Below are positions 15,911-22,067 of a stretch of DNA of 64,000 nucleotides, piece by piece. Position numbers and translations under genes: made by a program. Each line of letters begins with the position of its first letter. Position 1 is the first letter of the stretch. The notes beneath the pieces were generated by a model. That model saw only the letters and a list, made by a program, of their open reading frames with translations, ran no database searches and was not told where the DNA came from. This stretch comes from a virus. The stretch is taken from IMG/VR virus record IMGVR_UViG_3300023179_000019. The stretch is one strand, 5' to 3'.

Positions 15911-15938
15911 AAAGAACCCCGCTTCGGCGGGGTTTTTT
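15911..15938. terminator. bidirectional intrinsic terminator
   Basis: AACCCCGC-TTCG-GCGGGGTT flanked by A and T runs, between convergent genes. Confidence 0.9.
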
Positions 15939-15943
15939 ATTGG

Positions 15944-17383
15944 TTAAACGATTCTCGTACTTGCAAGTAACATCTTTTGAAAAGATGGTTCCATATTTCT
16001 TACAGCAGGTAAATATTTTTTCGGTGGTACTGGACCACCATCACTATTGACTGTTGTATTTTTAACACTAGTAACAGGATCGGATCTAGATTGAGGTAAA
16101 TTTAAATCTACATTTTGTGAATTGACCGCATTTAGTTTTGATCCTAGATTAGGAGTTTCCATTGGTTCTGCTTTTGCAGCAGGCCTGCCATTCAGTTGAG
16201 TTGAAGATTCCGTGCCTCCTGAAGCCATCGGTGCAGCAGGTGTTTCTGGCGCAGGTGTTGCTGGTGATTCGGTTGTTCCTTGTGGTATAGGCGTAGCTGT
16301 CTTTTTGGTACCATCATCATTGTAGTATGGCGCAAAATCTCTGTTCCATTTTTCTTCTTTTGATTTTGCAGCTAAACCTGTTCCAATAAATTGTTGTTTC
16401 GTGAAAGGCAATTTGTCTGCCATGCCTTCACCAGCCGGCCTTGGCGGCGGAATTTCATATACCTTTTCATCAGCAGCAATCTTCTTAACTTTTTCTTCAC
16501 CACCCATTTCCAACAAAAGTTTTTTCTTGGCTTCGCCTTCTTCCATGGCTAAAACTTCTTGAGCACGTTGACGACCATTCTTAATAATATCTTCTAGTTT
16601 TTCACGTCCACCAAGTGCTTCAATATCTCTATCACTTCCGTTCTGCAAAACGGCCTGCGCTTCATCAGGACTTAAAGCTTTCATATTAGATGTGTTTTCA
16701 GCTAACTTTTTTAGTCCAAAGGATATCAAAGCAATAAGAGCAACCATAGAAGTTACTCCCAATAATGCAAGACCTACGGGACTCGCAAACCAACGCAACA
16801 CATCCATCAATTTTTTTGCTACATCTGCACCACCAAGTAAATCCGACAAAGAAAAACCATCTTCACTTTTTAATTTTACTGCTGTTGCTTTACTTGAATA
16901 TGGTTTACCCGTAATCGCTTCAATTAATTCTTTGTGTCTTTTTAATTTCTCAATATCATTTTCTTCTTTATAATTATTTTGTTTTTCTCTACGCTTCCTT
17001 TCATCATCAAGTGATTTTTTCATTAACACATAGATTTTTTCTAGTGTCTTAGAGAAACCGCCAGTTGATTGTAATTGAGGAATTCTAGTTGATCTTTCTC
17101 CCATTGCCGAAGCTCGACCACCCCTTTTAACACCCGAAAAGAAATCAATTGATTCACGGCTTCTTCCTGTAGCTTTACCCAACATAGCAGGAGCCCAATT
17201 ACTACCAAATGTAAGAAACTTGGCAATATTCATTGGATCAAATGTTTGCTTGATGCGTGTTGCTCTGGCTTTTGATTTTAAAGAAATAGTCTTTCTAAGT
17301 GACGAAAAGGCACCACCCTCTTGTTCAGCAAGAAGTGTGCCAAAAGATTTGTTTCTTATGTTTTGTGCTTGTCTGTAGTCCAT
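15944..17383 (-). CDS. tape-measure/gp29-like protein, paralog 2
   Basis: Downstream of gp26/51; helical, TM-like segment, C-terminal VKNTTVN; N-domain shared with neighbour. Confidence 0.55.
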   Translation of the reverse strand: MDYRQAQNIRNKSFGTLLAEQEGGAFSSLRKTISLKSKARATRIKQTFDPMNIAKFLTFGSNWAPAMLGKATGRSRESIDFFSGVKRGGRASAMGERSTRIPQLQSTGGFSKTLEKIYVLMKKSLDDERKRREKQNNYKEENDIEKLKRHKELIEAITGKPYSSKATAVKLKSEDGFSLSDLLGGADVAKKLMDVLRWFASPVGLALLGVTSMVALIALISFGLKKLAENTSNMKALSPDEAQAVLQNGSDRDIEALGGREKLEDIIKNGRQRAQEVLAMEEGEAKKKLLLEMGGEEKVKKIAADEKVYEIPPPRPAGEGMADKLPFTKQQFIGTGLAAKSKEEKWNRDFAPYYNDDGTKKTATPIPQGTTESPATPAPETPAAPMASGGTESSTQLNGRPAAKAEPMETPNLGSKLNAVNSQNVDLNLPQSRSDPVTSVKNTTVNSDGGPVPPKKYLPAVRNMEPSFQKMLLASTRIV

Positions 17384-19374
17384 TATTTCTTATCAGCCTT
17401 TTTAACTGGAGCAGGTCTATCATCTGGCCTTGTTGATCCTGATGGTGGCATTTGATTAGACTGATTAACCGTTGTGTTGTTTACATTTGTTGGTGTCGGT
17501 GTATCTTTATTTAACTCATTTCGCATTTGAGTGTTTTGTTGTGATGTTTGACCAATTTGACTACCCTGTTGATTCAATAACTGAGTATATTCTGAAGCAG
17601 TTTTAGTAACTGATGCAGCATATTTGTCTACGCCCGCTGTGTGATAACCAGCTGCACCAACAGTTTTAGCATATTCACCTATATCACCTTTTTCTAAAGA
17701 TTCTTTGTATCTTGGATTTGATAATAGTTTTGCAAATGCATTTCCAAAATCTTCCGGACTTTCATATTTTGCAAAAAAACTTTTTACTTGAGCCCATTGT
17801 TTGCCAGCTGCTTGTGCATTAGCATATTGTCCTTTACCATACCAACCGTCAACGGTATAAAATTGACCCTTTCTTTGAATAAGTTTATCATCAGGACCAA
17901 TTACTTGAACAAATTCTTCTAAAGTTTTTCCTGATTTTATTGCTTCAAGTTGTTTTGGTGTATAAGCTTCTTCAACAGTTACGAAACCTCCGACTTGGCC
18001 AGCGTCTTTTTGTGCTTTGGTTGCTTTGATGTTACCATAATTGAATGGTGCAACTAACGATTTGCCATCTCCTGTTTCTAAACCCCATTGAGCTAACAAG
18101 GCTGCAGGTTGAATTTTTCCACCCAATTTTTGTGAAACCATCTGTGCAACAGGATTCATAGCACCAACAAATGATTCTTTACTTGTTGCTTTACCGGTTG
18201 CATCAAGACCTTTGGTTATCATTTTATCAGCTGAAGGTTTTGGTGCAGCGGGTGCAGGTTGTGCTGGGGCTTGTTGAGCAGGTGGTTGTGTTTGTTGTTT
18301 AGGTGCAGGTTGCGCTGTAGGTTGTTGCTGTTGAGTAGGTCTTTCAACTTCTTTTTTCTGTCTAGTTGCTGTTTCTTTATCAGCTTTATCTTTGGTTTGC
18401 TTAGCTTCTCTATCAGCCTTATCTCTAGCATCTTTAGCTTCTCTATCAGCTTTGTCTTTGGCTTGTTTACTCTCTCTGTCCGCTTTATCTTTTGCGTCTT
18501 TAGCTTCTTTGTCAGCTTTGTCTTTGGCTTCTTTTTGTGATTTATCTTTAGCTTCTCTATCGGCCTTATCTTTGGCTTCTCTATCAGCCTTATCTTTAGC
18601 AGCTTTATCTTTGGCTTCTCTATCAGCCTTATCTTTAGCAGCTTTATCTTTGGCTTCTCTATCAGCCTTATCTTTAGCAGCTTTATCTGTTTGTTGTTTT
18701 TGTGCTGGTTTTTCAGCAGGTTTTTGTGTTGCTGGTTTTTCAGCAGGTTTTTGTGTTGCTGGTTTTTCAGCAGGTTTTTGTGTTGCTGGTTTTTCAGCAG
18801 GTTTTTGTGTTGCTGGTTTTTCAGCAGGTTTTGCCGGCTCACCAGGTTTTTTAGGTTCTTCTATTTTCTTAGGACGACCAACTTTTTTTGGCACACGTTT
18901 AAGAGTGAGTGCCTTTAATATTTGTTCGTGTCTTTTTTGTTCAACTTTATTTTCACGTTTATCTTCTTTATCGTCCTCTTTGTTCCATTTGGCTATCTGT
19001 TTTTCACGTTCTTTAATAATTCTCTCAATGCCTTTAACAGACTCAATTATTGGATTAACAGGTTTATTTTCAGAATCACCGTCTTGAACAGCAGCAGAAC
19101 GGCCAACACCTGAAGGTCTTGCACCAGTAAAATGTGCAATATCAGATTGTTTTCTTCCGGTCATTTTACCTATCATAGCAGGAGCCCAATTGCTACCAAA
19201 AGTCATCTTTTTGGCAATATTCATTGGATCGAACGTTTCTTTTATACCCGTTACGTTTGCTCGGGTTTTGGATGAAATTGCAGAACCTATAGACGAAAGT
19301 AAGCCGCCCTCTTGTTCAGCCAAAAGGGAGCTAAATGATTTTTTTCTTATCTTAGCTGCTGAACGATAATCCAT
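17383..19374 (-). CDS. tape-measure/gp29-like protein with GH73 (FlgJ-like) glucosaminidase domain
   Basis: LAQWGLETG, NYGNIKA, FAKYES..D, NPRY, AGYHT; charged repeats. Confidence 0.65.
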   Translation of the reverse strand: MDYRSAAKIRKKSFSSLLAEQEGGLLSSIGSAISSKTRANVTGIKETFDPMNIAKKMTFGSNWAPAMIGKMTGRKQSDIAHFTGARPSGVGRSAAVQDGDSENKPVNPIIESVKGIERIIKEREKQIAKWNKEDDKEDKRENKVEQKRHEQILKALTLKRVPKKVGRPKKIEEPKKPGEPAKPAEKPATQKPAEKPATQKPAEKPATQKPAEKPATQKPAEKPAQKQQTDKAAKDKADREAKDKAAKDKADREAKDKAAKDKADREAKDKADREAKDKSQKEAKDKADKEAKDAKDKADRESKQAKDKADREAKDARDKADREAKQTKDKADKETATRQKKEVERPTQQQQPTAQPAPKQQTQPPAQQAPAQPAPAAPKPSADKMITKGLDATGKATSKESFVGAMNPVAQMVSQKLGGKIQPAALLAQWGLETGDGKSLVAPFNYGNIKATKAQKDAGQVGGFVTVEEAYTPKQLEAIKSGKTLEEFVQVIGPDDKLIQRKGQFYTVDGWYGKGQYANAQAAGKQWAQVKSFFAKYESPEDFGNAFAKLLSNPRYKESLEKGDIGEYAKTVGAAGYHTAGVDKYAASVTKTASEYTQLLNQQGSQIGQTSQQNTQMRNELNKDTPTPTNVNNTTVNQSNQMPPSGSTRPDDRPAPVKKADKK
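18400..18832. repeat. coding tandem repeats (27-bp x4+ and KDKADREA-type units)
   Basis: TGCTGGTTTTTCAGCAGGTTTTTGTGT at 18703, 18730, 18757, 18784 plus a partial copy; 39-bp units near 18566-18685. Confidence 0.9.
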
Positions 19375-19377
19375 TTA

Positions 19378-19566
19378 CTATTTTCTTTGTCTCTCTTTTA
19401 GTTTCTGGTTTTCTTCTTCAATATATTGTATCAGCATGGTGACGTAAATATCCCGTTCCCAAGGCAGCATCGCTTCGAGCTCGGTAAGACTATACTTATG
19501 GTGTTGCATCAATGAAAAGTTAGTCTTGTAATAATTCTTCAGATTGTCATGACGAAAGGTTAGCCG
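19378..19566 (-). CDS. gp51: gp51-like baseplate chaperone frame, probably reached by -1 frameshift from gp26
   Basis: HDNLKNYYKTNFSLMQHHKYSLTELEAMLPWERDIY; first ATG only at 19509, no clear SD. Confidence 0.75.
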   Translation of the reverse strand, partial: RLTFRHDNLKNYYKTNFSLMQHHKYSLTELEAMLPWERDIYVTMLIQYIEEENQKLKERQRK

Positions 19567-20291
19567 AAAAAATCTTCGAGGCCTTCTACAGAAAGATGGT
19601 GCTCAAAACCGCATTTGCTGCAGGTAACATCAATATTGTGTTTCATCCTAGGCAGATTGTTAAAGAAATTTTCAATCTTTTCAAATTGTTCCTGGTTCAT
19701 ACTCTCAACAAACTCCATGATTTCACCAGGTTCAGCTTCTCTCGCATAATAAAATTCTTCAGTCGGCACCTCATAGATGTACTCGATGCTGTTTGCAATC
19801 ATATTGAATGTAACTTCATTAATGTCATCCAACTCCATAGAATCTTTAATAAGACCGAATTCTGGATATTTCATTTTTACGATGATTTTATCCGATATCT
19901 TAATTTCTGGATTATTATTTTCCGGTTGTTGAACTTTCACCTGCATCAAATCAACATCTTTTTCCATAATGTTGCCACAATCTTTATCTTCAACAGTATT
20001 GTTGCAACGATATCTGGTTTGAATAATTTCTCCAACAGATTTTGCACGTAGTTGAATAAAGTAATATTCAACATCAACGATTGGTAACTTATCGATTTCG
20101 ATATTTTCTGTTACTGTACAGTTGTGAAGAATATCGTGTACGTTTTGTTGAATAGTCGCACTTTCTCCTGATTCTACTGCCATCAGAAGATTCTTTTGTT
20201 CTTTTACCAAGAACGGTCTGAATTTAATTTTTTTCTTTGAAACCGGTAATTCGATTTCATATGTTGGCACATCAAGTTTAGGCAAAGCCAT
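19560..20291 (-). CDS. gp26: baseplate hub assembly protein gp26
   Basis: MALPKLDVPTYE, FRPFLVKEQK, LRAKSVGE, CSKC, GLEDFF. Confidence 0.9.
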   Translation of the reverse strand: MALPKLDVPTYEIELPVSKKKIKFRPFLVKEQKNLLMAVESGESATIQQNVHDILHNCTVTENIEIDKLPIVDVEYYFIQLRAKSVGEIIQTRYRCNNTVEDKDCGNIMEKDVDLMQVKVQQPENNNPEIKISDKIIVKMKYPEFGLIKDSMELDDINEVTFNMIANSIEYIYEVPTEEFYYAREAEPGEIMEFVESMNQEQFEKIENFFNNLPRMKHNIDVTCSKCGFEHHLSVEGLEDFFG

Positions 20292-20320
20292 AATATCTCC
20301 TTAATATATTAATAAAATAA

Positions 20321-21010
20321 TTATCTACCACCAAAAGTAGATTTGATAGTTTCTAAAGAACCGCTGGCTACCGATTCTGGTATAGAATTGATACCGGTGC
20401 CAATACCGCCAAGCGCATTTAGTCCTCCAAGAGCATCGGCAACCAGGCCAATGCCCGCATCGACAACCTCCATACCAAGAGCTTGTAGAGAGTTGTTTTT
20501 CCAATAAGTGTAAGCAAAAGTAACACTTAATTTATGATACCCGTCATTCGACCAATCTAAATCTAATTGATTCATTGAAACAGGAAAAGCATCAAACATA
20601 TTAACAGAATACGATGGTTGATTAGTTACATCATATTGTGTTACTGTAAGAATAGTTGCATAATCACTTTTATATCTGTGATTGTAGTTATACGTTGGAT
20701 TCATGTAGTTCATCCACGCATCGAAAAACACCTTTTGGTTCATGTCGTCATCAACAATAAAAGTTAGATCAATATCGTTGTAAGTAGTTTCATAAGGAAA
20801 TTTTTCAATCGGATTTGAACCGATTCTTTGTTCTAGTGTTGCAAAAGTTCTACCCGGAAGTTGTGCCGCTTCACAACGAAACGAAAGATTTCTGGAACTT
20901 TGAATATATGGCAATAACGTTAAAGGAATAGGTATATCTACCTGAAACTTATTAGGTCTGGCAATGTCTTTCTTAAAACTAGATTGGAATTCTGATATTG
21001 AACCCGGCAT
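20321..21010 (-). CDS. tail tube initiator / gp54-like (gp19 fold)
   Basis: ARPNKF, CEAAQLPGRT, FPVSMNQLDL, VTFAY. Confidence 0.75.
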   Translation of the reverse strand: MPGSISEFQSSFKKDIARPNKFQVDIPIPLTLLPYIQSSRNLSFRCEAAQLPGRTFATLEQRIGSNPIEKFPYETTYNDIDLTFIVDDDMNQKVFFDAWMNYMNPTYNYNHRYKSDYATILTVTQYDVTNQPSYSVNMFDAFPVSMNQLDLDWSNDGYHKLSVTFAYTYWKNNSLQALGMEVVDAGIGLVADALGGLNALGGIGTGINSIPESVASGSLETIKSTFGGR

Positions 21011-21613
21011 TTAGTGTTTCCTTATTTCGTTTATCGATTCTTGCCAAACTTTTTGTGGTTTGGCTTTCTTAAATTGTTGCATAGGTAAGAATACTGCCAC
21101 TTCCCATTCATTTGGTTGGATGGCAAGTATTTTGGACTTAACATGACCATACAAATAACGCTTAAAGCATGGCCTGAACTCTTTAAACCGCTTGGAAGAC
21201 GATAGGATTTCATACGTGACTCTCAGTCGCTTAATCTCGTCCTCATCGTTGTACATTGCATAGGACATTAACTTATTTAAAAATGCCACTCGATATTTAA
21301 TCGGTAAGTAATGCAGATTTAGTCCTGTAAATCCTTCTTTATCTCTATCTAGTATTAATACCAAAGGAAATCTGTCATAATATGGTAAATCTTCTTTGGT
21401 TTTTGGATCATAATAAAAACAATACAATCTACCTAAAATAAATCTACTTACTTTTCTAAAACCCTCTCTGTTGATTTCGGTTGCAATCCTAGACGGATTT
21501 CGAATATCTGCAATTTTTTCAAGAAGCCATTTATACGACTCTTTCGATAAAAAATCAAGTTGAGCCGCACTTCTTTCAGCGGAGATAAGTGTTAGTTTTG
21601 ACTGTGTGACCAT
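21011..21613 (-). CDS. gp2: DNA end protector gp2
   Basis: YDPKTK..LPYYDRFPL, GLNLHYLP, KRYL. Confidence 0.9.
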   Translation of the reverse strand: MVTQSKLTLISAERSAAQLDFLSKESYKWLLEKIADIRNPSRIATEINREGFRKVSRFILGRLYCFYYDPKTKEDLPYYDRFPLVLILDRDKEGFTGLNLHYLPIKYRVAFLNKLMSYAMYNDEDEIKRLRVTYEILSSSKRFKEFRPCFKRYLYGHVKSKILAIQPNEWEVAVFLPMQQFKKAKPQKVWQESINEIRKH

Positions 21614-21626
21614 AATTAATATTTAG

Positions 21627-22067
21627 TTACAATCCTAGGTGTTCTTCTGTTAAAATTTTGAATTCCCAACCACGATCCAAACAATACTCGCTGGCTGCTT
21701 TCCATTTTGCTTTATTTACTGCAAATGTGTAAACTTCATTTATGTACTGTTTTGTTACTTTTGATTTTTTGATAGGTTCTTCTGTTTGATACTTTGGTTT
21801 AACTTCTATCAAATAACTTTTTACTATTCCTTGTTTGTTCTTTATTTGTGCAAAAAAATCAACAAAATATCTTCTATAATTGCCTTTAAGTGGGTCTTTG
21901 TAAGGAATTATAATTTCCTCACTGGACCAAGATACAACATCTGGTGATGTGTCTAACCAGACGCAAACTTTTGTTTCCCAAGATGATCTCACCCAAATGT
22001 TGGTGTGATCACCTCGATACTTTTGAGGATTTCTAGGTTTCCATTTATGTGGTTCAGGTCTTGCCAT
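21627..22067 (-). CDS. gp4: head completion nuclease gp4
   Basis: NPQKYRGD, RSSWE, WSSEE, RYFVDF, IEVKP, NKAKW. Confidence 0.92.
   Translation of the reverse strand: MARPEPHKWKPRNPQKYRGDHTNIWVRSSWETKVCVWLDTSPDVVSWSSEEIIIPYKDPLKGNYRRYFVDFFAQIKNKQGIVKSYLIEVKPKYQTEEPIKKSKVTKQYINEVYTFAVNKAKWKAASEYCLDRGWEFKILTEEHLGL

Follow-up and report, generated by a model that had tools for sequence, protein, structure and literature searches.

The DNA examined here (‘the window’ in what follows) is a 64,000-nucleotide (nt) stretch of an uncultured T4-like phage (IMG/VR record IMGVR_UViG_3300023179_000019; 35.6% G+C), and its minus strand carries a gene of the gp26 family whose 3' end runs into a gp51-like reading frame lying in the -1 frame. 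Comparison of this junction with those of related phages makes it highly probable that it is a site of programmed -1 ribosomal frameshifting of the lambda G/GT type, from which a short protein and a rarer, extended one (243 and 304 amino acids (aa), respectively) would be made from a single gene. The features of the locus are as follows:

19560..20291, minus strand: 243-aa gene of the gp26 family, closed by TAA and encoding the short, unshifted form (PF12322 T4_baseplate, 7.2e-60; phrog_150, 4.3e-64)
20302..20297, minus strand: strong Shine-Dalgarno (SD) sequence of gp26, AAGGAG, 5 nt before the ATG
19566..19572, minus strand: slippery heptamer T_TTT_TTC, in X_XXY_YYZ register and separated by one codon from the stop of gp26
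19378..19566, minus strand: extension in the -1 frame, 62 codons plus TAG, gp51-like and predicted to be all-helical (phrog_634, 1.7e-28)
19378..20291, minus strand: span of the predicted 304-aa frameshift product, with the junction ...VEGLEDFF/RLTFRHDNL...
20019..20291, minus strand: N-terminal gp26 domain (approximately residues 1-91), with a probable tail-assembly-chaperone fold suggested by structural searches of a predicted model

The 3' end of gp26 reads GAA GAT TTT TTC GGC TAA on the minus strand (the TAA at 19562..19560), such that the TTT and TTC of the heptamer (19572..19566) are themselves codons of the zero frame. A ribosome that has slipped back by one base would read CGG CTA ACC TTT CGT CAT GAC and onwards, corresponding to RLTFRHDNLKNYYKTNFSLMQHH..., through 62 codons to a TAG at 19380..19378. 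The predicted products are thus one of 243 aa ending in ...EDFFG and a fusion of 242+62 = 304 aa with the junction peptide ...HHLSVEGLEDFFR. The first ATG of the -1 frame is its codon 20 (19509..19507), found after AACTTTTCATTG and lacking a purine-rich SD, and the extension contains no in-frame start upstream of it. When compared with PHROGs, the -1 peptide matches phrog_634 (‘baseplate hub assembly catalyst’, that is, gp51) at positions 58-118, as well as the gp26 family (phrog_150) at that family's C-terminal end. A frameshift at this point had been proposed earlier from the letters of the window (hereafter the original prediction), and the coordinates of the gp26 end, the heptamer and the 62-codon frame given there proved to be correct to the base; its two product sizes were confirmed from the predicted translation, its placing of the first ATG 19 codons in, with no clear SD, holds, and its assignment of the -1 frame as gp51-like is upheld both by phrog_634 and by an alignment to residues 201-249 of T4 gp51.

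An in-register X_XXY_YYZ heptamer followed by an open -1 frame of 62 codons is what a -1 frameshift site would present. Heptamers of this composition are not enriched in the AT-rich window (48 copies of TTTTTTC vs 43 +/- 7 expected), and the case for a signal therefore rests on position, register and conservation across phages. As judged from the aligned junctions, the combination of the three is far beyond chance. For the comparison, each gp26 homologue was extended to its own stop without any search for the motif, after which its last codons and the other frames were read. A heptamer of the form T_TTT_TTC/T/G was found in register, 0-3 codons before the stop, in 145/145 loci of the frameshift type, which represent 81 distinct junction sequences (72 computed and nine read by eye). 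All 80 of the IMG/VR relatives at 63-98% identity have T_TTT_TTC in the same register and a gp51-like peptide in the -1 frame, as do the cyanophages P-RSM6, P-SSM2 and S-SZBM1 at approximately 35% identity, while in a second sample of 55 IMG/VR loci, from more distant phages, either T_TTT_TTC or T_TTT_TTT stands 0, 1, 2 or 3 codons before the stop, again with a gp51-like peptide in the -1 frame. Named phages of six further lineages conform: T_TTT_TTC is found in Vibrio phage nt-1, Stenotrophomonas Yut2, Citrobacter Ci1 and Aeromonas 65, and T_TTT_TTT in Caulobacter Cr30; in Rhizobium AF3 the site is T_TTT_TTG, so that the protein reads F-L instead and the slippery pattern is retained. The loci of this type thus span cyanophages, KVP40-like phages and phages of Aeromonas, Caulobacter, Rhizobium and Stenotrophomonas.

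The codon before the heptamer specifies D, N, S or A, with a third base that is invariably T, and the codon after it varies freely. Similarity between the window and the cyanophages, as found by blastn, starts precisely at the heptamer, and the conserved -1 peptide (x-x-x-L-x-H-[DEN]-x-L-x-N-[YH]-[YF]...) begins directly after it whether the zero-frame stop follows 0 or 3 codons on. In many relatives a TGA in the -1 frame, two codons before the heptamer, limits the shift to a 13-nt interval that holds little besides the heptamer itself. Across the gp26 family as a whole (7,192 proteins in 4,201 clusters at 50% identity), 143 of the 150 best cluster representatives at that identity end in F-F or F-L followed by at most three residues, and 0/150 are fused. 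In three singleton metagenome proteins of 284-294 aa (P0271, P0272 and P0274), found on contigs of 1.6-2.2 kb, gp26 and a gp51-like tail do share a single reading frame, the join in two cases falling exactly at ...FF-R/L...; these proteins may reflect either sequencing errors in homopolymers or hard-wired fusions that occur rarely in nature, and because of the former possibility they were set aside as evidence of natural fusion.

The behavior of phages in which gene 51 stands on its own provided a negative control. In six such phages (T4, ECp13, a Jiaodavirus, a Karamvirus, and Acinetobacter phages Apostate and AbTZA1), gene 26 is followed by gene 25, and gene 51 is separate and divergently transcribed. 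At the homologous ...GLKEFF... position these phages encode F-F or F-V after a codon that has A or G as its last base (GAG TTC TTT, GAA TTC TTT, GAA TTC TTC, GAA TTT GTT or GAA TTT GTC), and the slippery heptamer is present in 0/6. The heptamer, its register and the offset are thus kept (145/145) while flanking synonymous sites vary, and are lost where they would be unneeded (0/6); as far as these genomes go, the heptamer is found in precisely those loci that have a gp51-type tail following in the -1 frame.

The relationship of the T4 proteins to the window's locus is one of collinearity. T4 gp26 (208 aa) belongs to the same family as the window's gp26 and corresponds to it, with a PF12322 score of 8.8e-64; T4 gp51 (249 aa) scores 7.7e-55 over its residues 1-201, and the window's gp26 reaches 202.8 bits against a cut-off of 24.5, its residues 9-242 covering positions 2-218/219 of the profile. 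On phrog_150 (282 positions), T4 gp26 covers 14-235, T4 gp51 13-280, the window's gp26 5-232 and the window's extension 235-276. The body of T4 gp51 aligns with both gp26 proteins, and its residues 201-249, the last 49 of the protein, align with the extension (E 3e-5). T4 gp51 is thus collinear with the window's gp26 and extension taken together, a long form made up of body and C-terminal tail, and can be regarded as the hard-wired counterpart of the predicted fusion. In T4 the two forms are divergently transcribed paralogues, and the homologous Phe-Phe (GAG TTC TTT) has no slippery heptamer, whereas in the window's phage one gene with a predicted frameshift would do both jobs. Exactly one PF12322 gene was found in each of three complete relatives (157-168 kb, 94-100% complete; 3/3) and no second copy was found in the window, so that the slip is the only visible source of a long form in this clade.

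A further line of evidence comes from the stretch of the -1 frame that follows the gp26 stop and precedes the first ATG (codons 3-19), which was examined in 47 unique junctions of the window's clade. The summed entropies at the three codon positions are 5.4/2.2/16.9, and L9, Y13, T15, N16, F17 and S18 of the peptide are retained via synonymous changes. This region is thus under coding selection without having a start of its own: no conserved start was found among the codons between the heptamer and codon 20 in the 47 junctions, CGT, CGC or TGT stands here in the place of the cyanophage ATG, and the ATG at codon 20 is itself replaced by ATA, GTA or ATT in 4/47. The first methionine lies at least 19 codons in for 59/72 distinct junctions, and across lineages that share only approximately 35% gp26 identity the frame is held open at 58-67 codons under purifying selection. 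Several expectations attached to the original prediction can be judged from these comparisons: a conserved TTTTTTN heptamer, an offset that is always -1 (no relative has a different one) and conservation of the protein upstream of MQHH were all found, and the absence of a good independent gp51 start, with no in-frame start before the conserved residues, stands for the window's clade and does not extend to cyanophages, nt-1, Cr30, Yut2 and AF3, where an ATG lies next to the stop.

The fold of gp26 was approached through an AlphaFold (AF2) model built from 88 diverse sequences (predicted local distance difference test score 95.9, predicted template modeling score 0.90). The best PDB match returned by Foldseek, 2OB9, the HK97 tail assembly chaperone (TAC), was weak (E 0.57, probability 0.85). 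When the model was compared by VIA-align with 48,161 representative chains, the top three were 3FGX (Z 7.8, 86 residues aligned), 3KLU/YqbN (Z 7.3) and 2OB9 (Z 6.7), each aligning approximately 85 residues with residues 1-95 of the model, followed by 5IR0 at 4.7 and then by unrelated chains at 4.4 or below. All three of the leading structures are described in PMC9603447 as phage TACs. The Z-scores are moderate, but a top three consisting only of TACs would be hard to get by accident, and it is the TAC fold that the N-terminal domain of the modeled gp26 matches best. A sequence search of solved structures with gp26 returned nothing below E 0.75.

The remainder of gp26 contains four nearly invariant cysteines (C95, C105, C224 and C227), which probably belong to a zinc ribbon. 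In structural searches, residues ~88-239 (19563..20018, minus strand) repeatedly matched zinc ribbons and the C-terminal peptide-binding domains of Hsp40/DnaJ, but only weakly (Z 3.0-3.8). For the fusion, the in-frame homologue P0272 served solely as a foldable stand-in, and its model has the same body, an all-helical tail and a low-confidence linker between them; a BFVD search with this fusion model returned many gp26-family models and no clear full-length match of the gp51 type. The gp51-like tail also has a precomputed Pfam accession, PF28602.

The neighboring genes form an operon on the minus strand, in which the junction occupies the following setting:

22067..21627, minus strand: gp4-like head-completion gene, the first of the operon
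21613..21011, minus strand: gp2 DNA end protector, 5' of the gp54-like gene
20321..21010, minus strand: 229-aa gp54-like protein of the tube fold, a baseplate-tail tube initiator (phrog_45, 6e-43; PF06841, 1e-6; phmmer to T4 gp54, 5e-5)
17383..19374, minus strand: 663-aa gene with an N-terminal module, K/D/E/A/P-rich repeats and a glucosaminidase domain (PF01832, 1.4e-9)
15944..17383, minus strand: 479-aa gene with an N-terminal module and a hydrophobic helix, the last of the operon
15934..15915, minus strand: hairpin resembling an intrinsic terminator, closing the operon after the 479-aa gene

The gp26 gene thus lies directly after a gene of the tube fold and ahead of two genes that encode, between them, repeats, a hydrolase domain and a hydrophobic helix. 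Over roughly the first 100 residues (MDYR.A..IR.KSF..LLAEQEGG...; phmmer 1e-36) these two products, of 663 and 479 aa, are paralogous to each other, and the atlas neighbors of the former are clusters of phage glucosaminidases and tail-tip lysozymes. Long charged or proline-rich repeats, glucosaminidase domains and hydrophobic helices are features that occur in tape measures and ejection proteins, and the two products may be putative proteins of that kind, the 663-aa gene being a candidate tape measure or tail-tip hydrolase. The 663-aa protein also contains approximately five copies of KPAEKPATQ (a 27-nt DNA repeat near 18700-18800) and a dozen KDKADREA-like units. A PHROGs search with the two proteins at E values up to 5 found nothing relevant. 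The gene order put forward by the original prediction (tube-fold gene, gp26, gp51, tape-measure-like genes) holds in that a tube fold does lie upstream, but the gene concerned is a homologue of gp54 and so encodes the initiator of the baseplate tube rather than its major protein.

A conserved -1 frameshift has been described in the genes of tail assembly chaperones (Levin 1993 and Xu 2004, cited in PMC5009743 and PMC3091744). The window's locus resembles those of lambda gpG/gpGT, HK97 gp13 (PDB 2OB9) and P2 E/E+E', in its two predicted products with a common N-terminus, in its position directly after a tube-fold gene and in the apparent fold of its N-terminal domain, which is that of HK97 gp13, YqbN and Rbstp2171; the TAC fold and the position together are what fit it to their scheme. 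According to PMC3091744, P2 shifts on TTTTTTG with no downstream structure, a heptamer one base removed from the window's TTTTTTC, and none was detected at the window's site either. The differences are that the window's gp26 resembles none of the Pfam TAC families in sequence, that its length is approximately double, the additional C-terminal part bearing the four conserved cysteines, that its upstream gene is a gp54-type tube initiator rather than the major tube protein, and that its downstream partner is a candidate tape measure only. Also close are the gp26 and gp51 genes of the cyanophage and KVP40 type (P-SSM2 PSSM2_014/015 and nt-1 VPFG_00382/00381), which share the pair, the heptamer, the -1 offset and the upstream gp4, gp2 and gp54, but which stand in their records as two independent coding sequences (CDSs) and have an ATG beside the stop that is absent in the window's clade.

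The reading proposed for the junction would thus run as follows. Most ribosomes would halt at the UAA of gp26 and release the 243-aa protein; a minority, with tRNA-Phe on UUU in the P site and on UUC in the A site, would slip, both tRNAs re-pairing one base back on U_UUU_UUC, and would read CGG CUA ACC and onwards for 62 codons to give a 304-aa protein made up of gp26 residues 1-242 and a helical gp51-type tail. The pair would then act in the manner of lambda gpG/gpGT, HK97 gp13 or P2 E/E+E': as a tail is being initiated, the tape-measure or hub protein would be held by the common body, with its TAC-fold N-domain, the long form, the rarer of the two, would add a second contact via its tail, and neither would be expected in the virion. 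In T4 and its close relatives the slip would have been replaced by paralogous genes, with 26 as the short form and 51 as the long one. What the analysis shows is the site with its register and its conservation, the coding selection in a frame without a start, the collinear match to T4 gp51 and the match in fold; the slippage itself, its rate and the partners of the two forms are inferred. The suggestion in the original prediction that gp26/gp51 is the T4-like equivalent of G/GT gains support from the leading place of three solved TACs among the matches to residues 1-95.

A number of points weigh against this reading. No evidence of the predicted fusion from proteins, ribosome profiling or reporters could be found for the window's phage or its relatives. 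No stimulatory RNA structure was detected, either in a single-sequence fold of 19470..19572 (z -0.35) or by RNAalifold on 19 diverse junctions (0 conserved pairs), in agreement with the original prediction, so that the rate of frameshifting may be low. The lambda and P2 sites themselves work without a stimulatory element. An SD-like GAAGG (GGAGG in many relatives) at 19583..19589 (minus strand) lies 10 nt upstream of the heptamer, which is the spacing of the dnaX stimulator, but it was not counted in favor of the reading, as it arises from conserved E/K-G codons and is also found in T4-type gp26 genes that do not shift. The fold Z-scores of 6.7-7.8 are in the middling range of the tool and indicate fold-level similarity only, and no match to Pfam Phage_TAC was obtained at E up to 10 with gp26 residues 1-96 or with the fused homologues; a fold match without a TAC sequence match would make gp26 a fold-level and functional analogue that stands outside the curated TAC sequence families. 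It is plausible that the two downstream genes encode tape measures, but phmmer found no match between their products and T4 gp29, gp27 or gp28 or nt-1 ORF206. Finally, an ATG overlaps or adjoins the gp26 stop (TAATG/TGATG) in cyanophages, nt-1, Cr30, Yut2, AF3 and Dickeya XF4, and phages of the Ackermannviridae type have a gp51-like ORF (open reading frame) in the -1 frame after gp26 with no heptamer (GAA ATT TTC ATT TAA). The loci of the latter are:

Salmonella phage Vi01, 2230..2420: TAATT at the stop, the ORF unannotated
Dickeya phage XF4, 1707..1856: coupling start TAATG
Vibrio phage D531

These last two observations are also what favors the view that no fusion is made, and that the gp51-like ORF is translated separately (from the ATG at 19509, a TTG at 19512 or a non-canonical start after termination of gp26) as a peptide of 43-60 aa that works in trans; the records of phages having an ATG at or next to the stop indeed annotate a small protein, and to judge from the position of that codon the small ORF could be made independently in those lineages as well. 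The existence of the Ackermannviridae ORF without a heptamer implies that the tail module can probably also work as a separate peptide, which looks like a third route for its expression, and frameshifting is accordingly to be seen, within the genomes compared, as the rule across most of the T4 superfamily and not all of it. For the window's clade, however, separate translation would have to begin where the counterpart of the cyanophage ATG is CGT, CGC or TGT, where no conserved start precedes codon 20, where codon 20 is not always ATG and no SD precedes 19509, and where codons 3-19 are nevertheless under coding selection; it also leaves unexplained why the heptamer is invariant wherever the ORF lies in the -1 frame and lost where gene 51 is separate.

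Transcriptional slippage, in which RNA polymerase would insert an extra U within the T6 run and part of the mRNAs would encode the same 304-aa fusion, would have an identical outcome, and a conserved run of T suits either mechanism; in some relatives, where the run reaches T7-T8 (AGT TTT TTT TGA), slippage by the polymerase becomes more plausible. The window's own run comprises only six T, however, and in known cases a polymerase that slips productively mostly does so on about 7-9 or more. In addition, the run always starts at a third codon position, such that two whole zero-frame codons re-pair (a matter of consequence to ribosomes and not to the polymerase), and AF3 retains T_TTT_TTG, the heptamer that is ribosomally active in P2. 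This explanation is improbable, and separate translation slightly more so. That the -1 ORF is a decaying remnant of gene 51, with the T run arising incidentally from conserved Phe-Phe codons in a genome rich in A and T, can hardly be credited: TTTTTTC is indeed common in the window and F-F is conserved in the protein family, but the comparative data contradict decay in that the ORF stays open and under purifying selection at ~35% gp26 identity, the preceding codon, whichever residue it specifies, always ends in T, and the phages that do not shift encode the same residues with TTC TTT or TTC TTC.

What T4 gp26 and gp51 do in hub assembly has, in the account of PMC3004832, been vague since the 1970s: Table 2 of that review (Leiman et al. 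2010) lists both solely as hub assembly chaperones, and gp51 is described there as needed for assembly and absent from the particle. G-T frameshifting is stated in PMC5009743 to be conserved in long-tailed phages ‘except T4’. If the frameshift occurs, as the junctions compared here make very probable, the T4 group is not really an exception. A broader proposal, toward which the balance tips somewhat, is that the ancestral state of the T4 superfamily was a single TAC gene with a -1 frameshift of the G/GT type, that T4 gp26 and the ‘catalytic’ gp51 represent the pair fixed as two genes after a duplication, and that gp26/gp51 are the missing chaperones of the tape measure (gp29), which would remove the one cited exception to a nearly universal rule of long-tailed phages.

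A -1 frameshift in a tail chaperone gene is a known kind of event, and it appears to be undescribed in the gp26/gp51 family; no prior report of a gp26-gp51 frameshift was found in the literature, which is weak evidence of novelty as most subscription journals lay outside the search. The chaperone idea itself is not new, as the annotation of Acinetobacter phage Apostate already gives gp26 as well as gp51 the name ‘tape measure protein assembly chaperone’. Were the frameshift real, most T4-like phages, including the abundant marine and freshwater ones, would follow the frameshift rule, T4 genes 26 and 51 could be understood as a hard-wired G and GT, and the heptamer would offer a simple experimental handle on the initiation of T4-type tail tubes and tape measures. 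In the GenBank records examined, the pair is given as two separate CDSs or the second is missed, and a joined CDS is found in none; thousands of records that have a start-less, separate ‘gp51’, or none, would then need one. Beyond the T4 group, models in BFVD predict the gp26/gp51 fold in numerous other myoviruses, among them Bacillus phages SP-15 and BCD7, Ralstonia phage phiRSL1, Pseudomonas phage PaBG and Campylobacter phage CP220.

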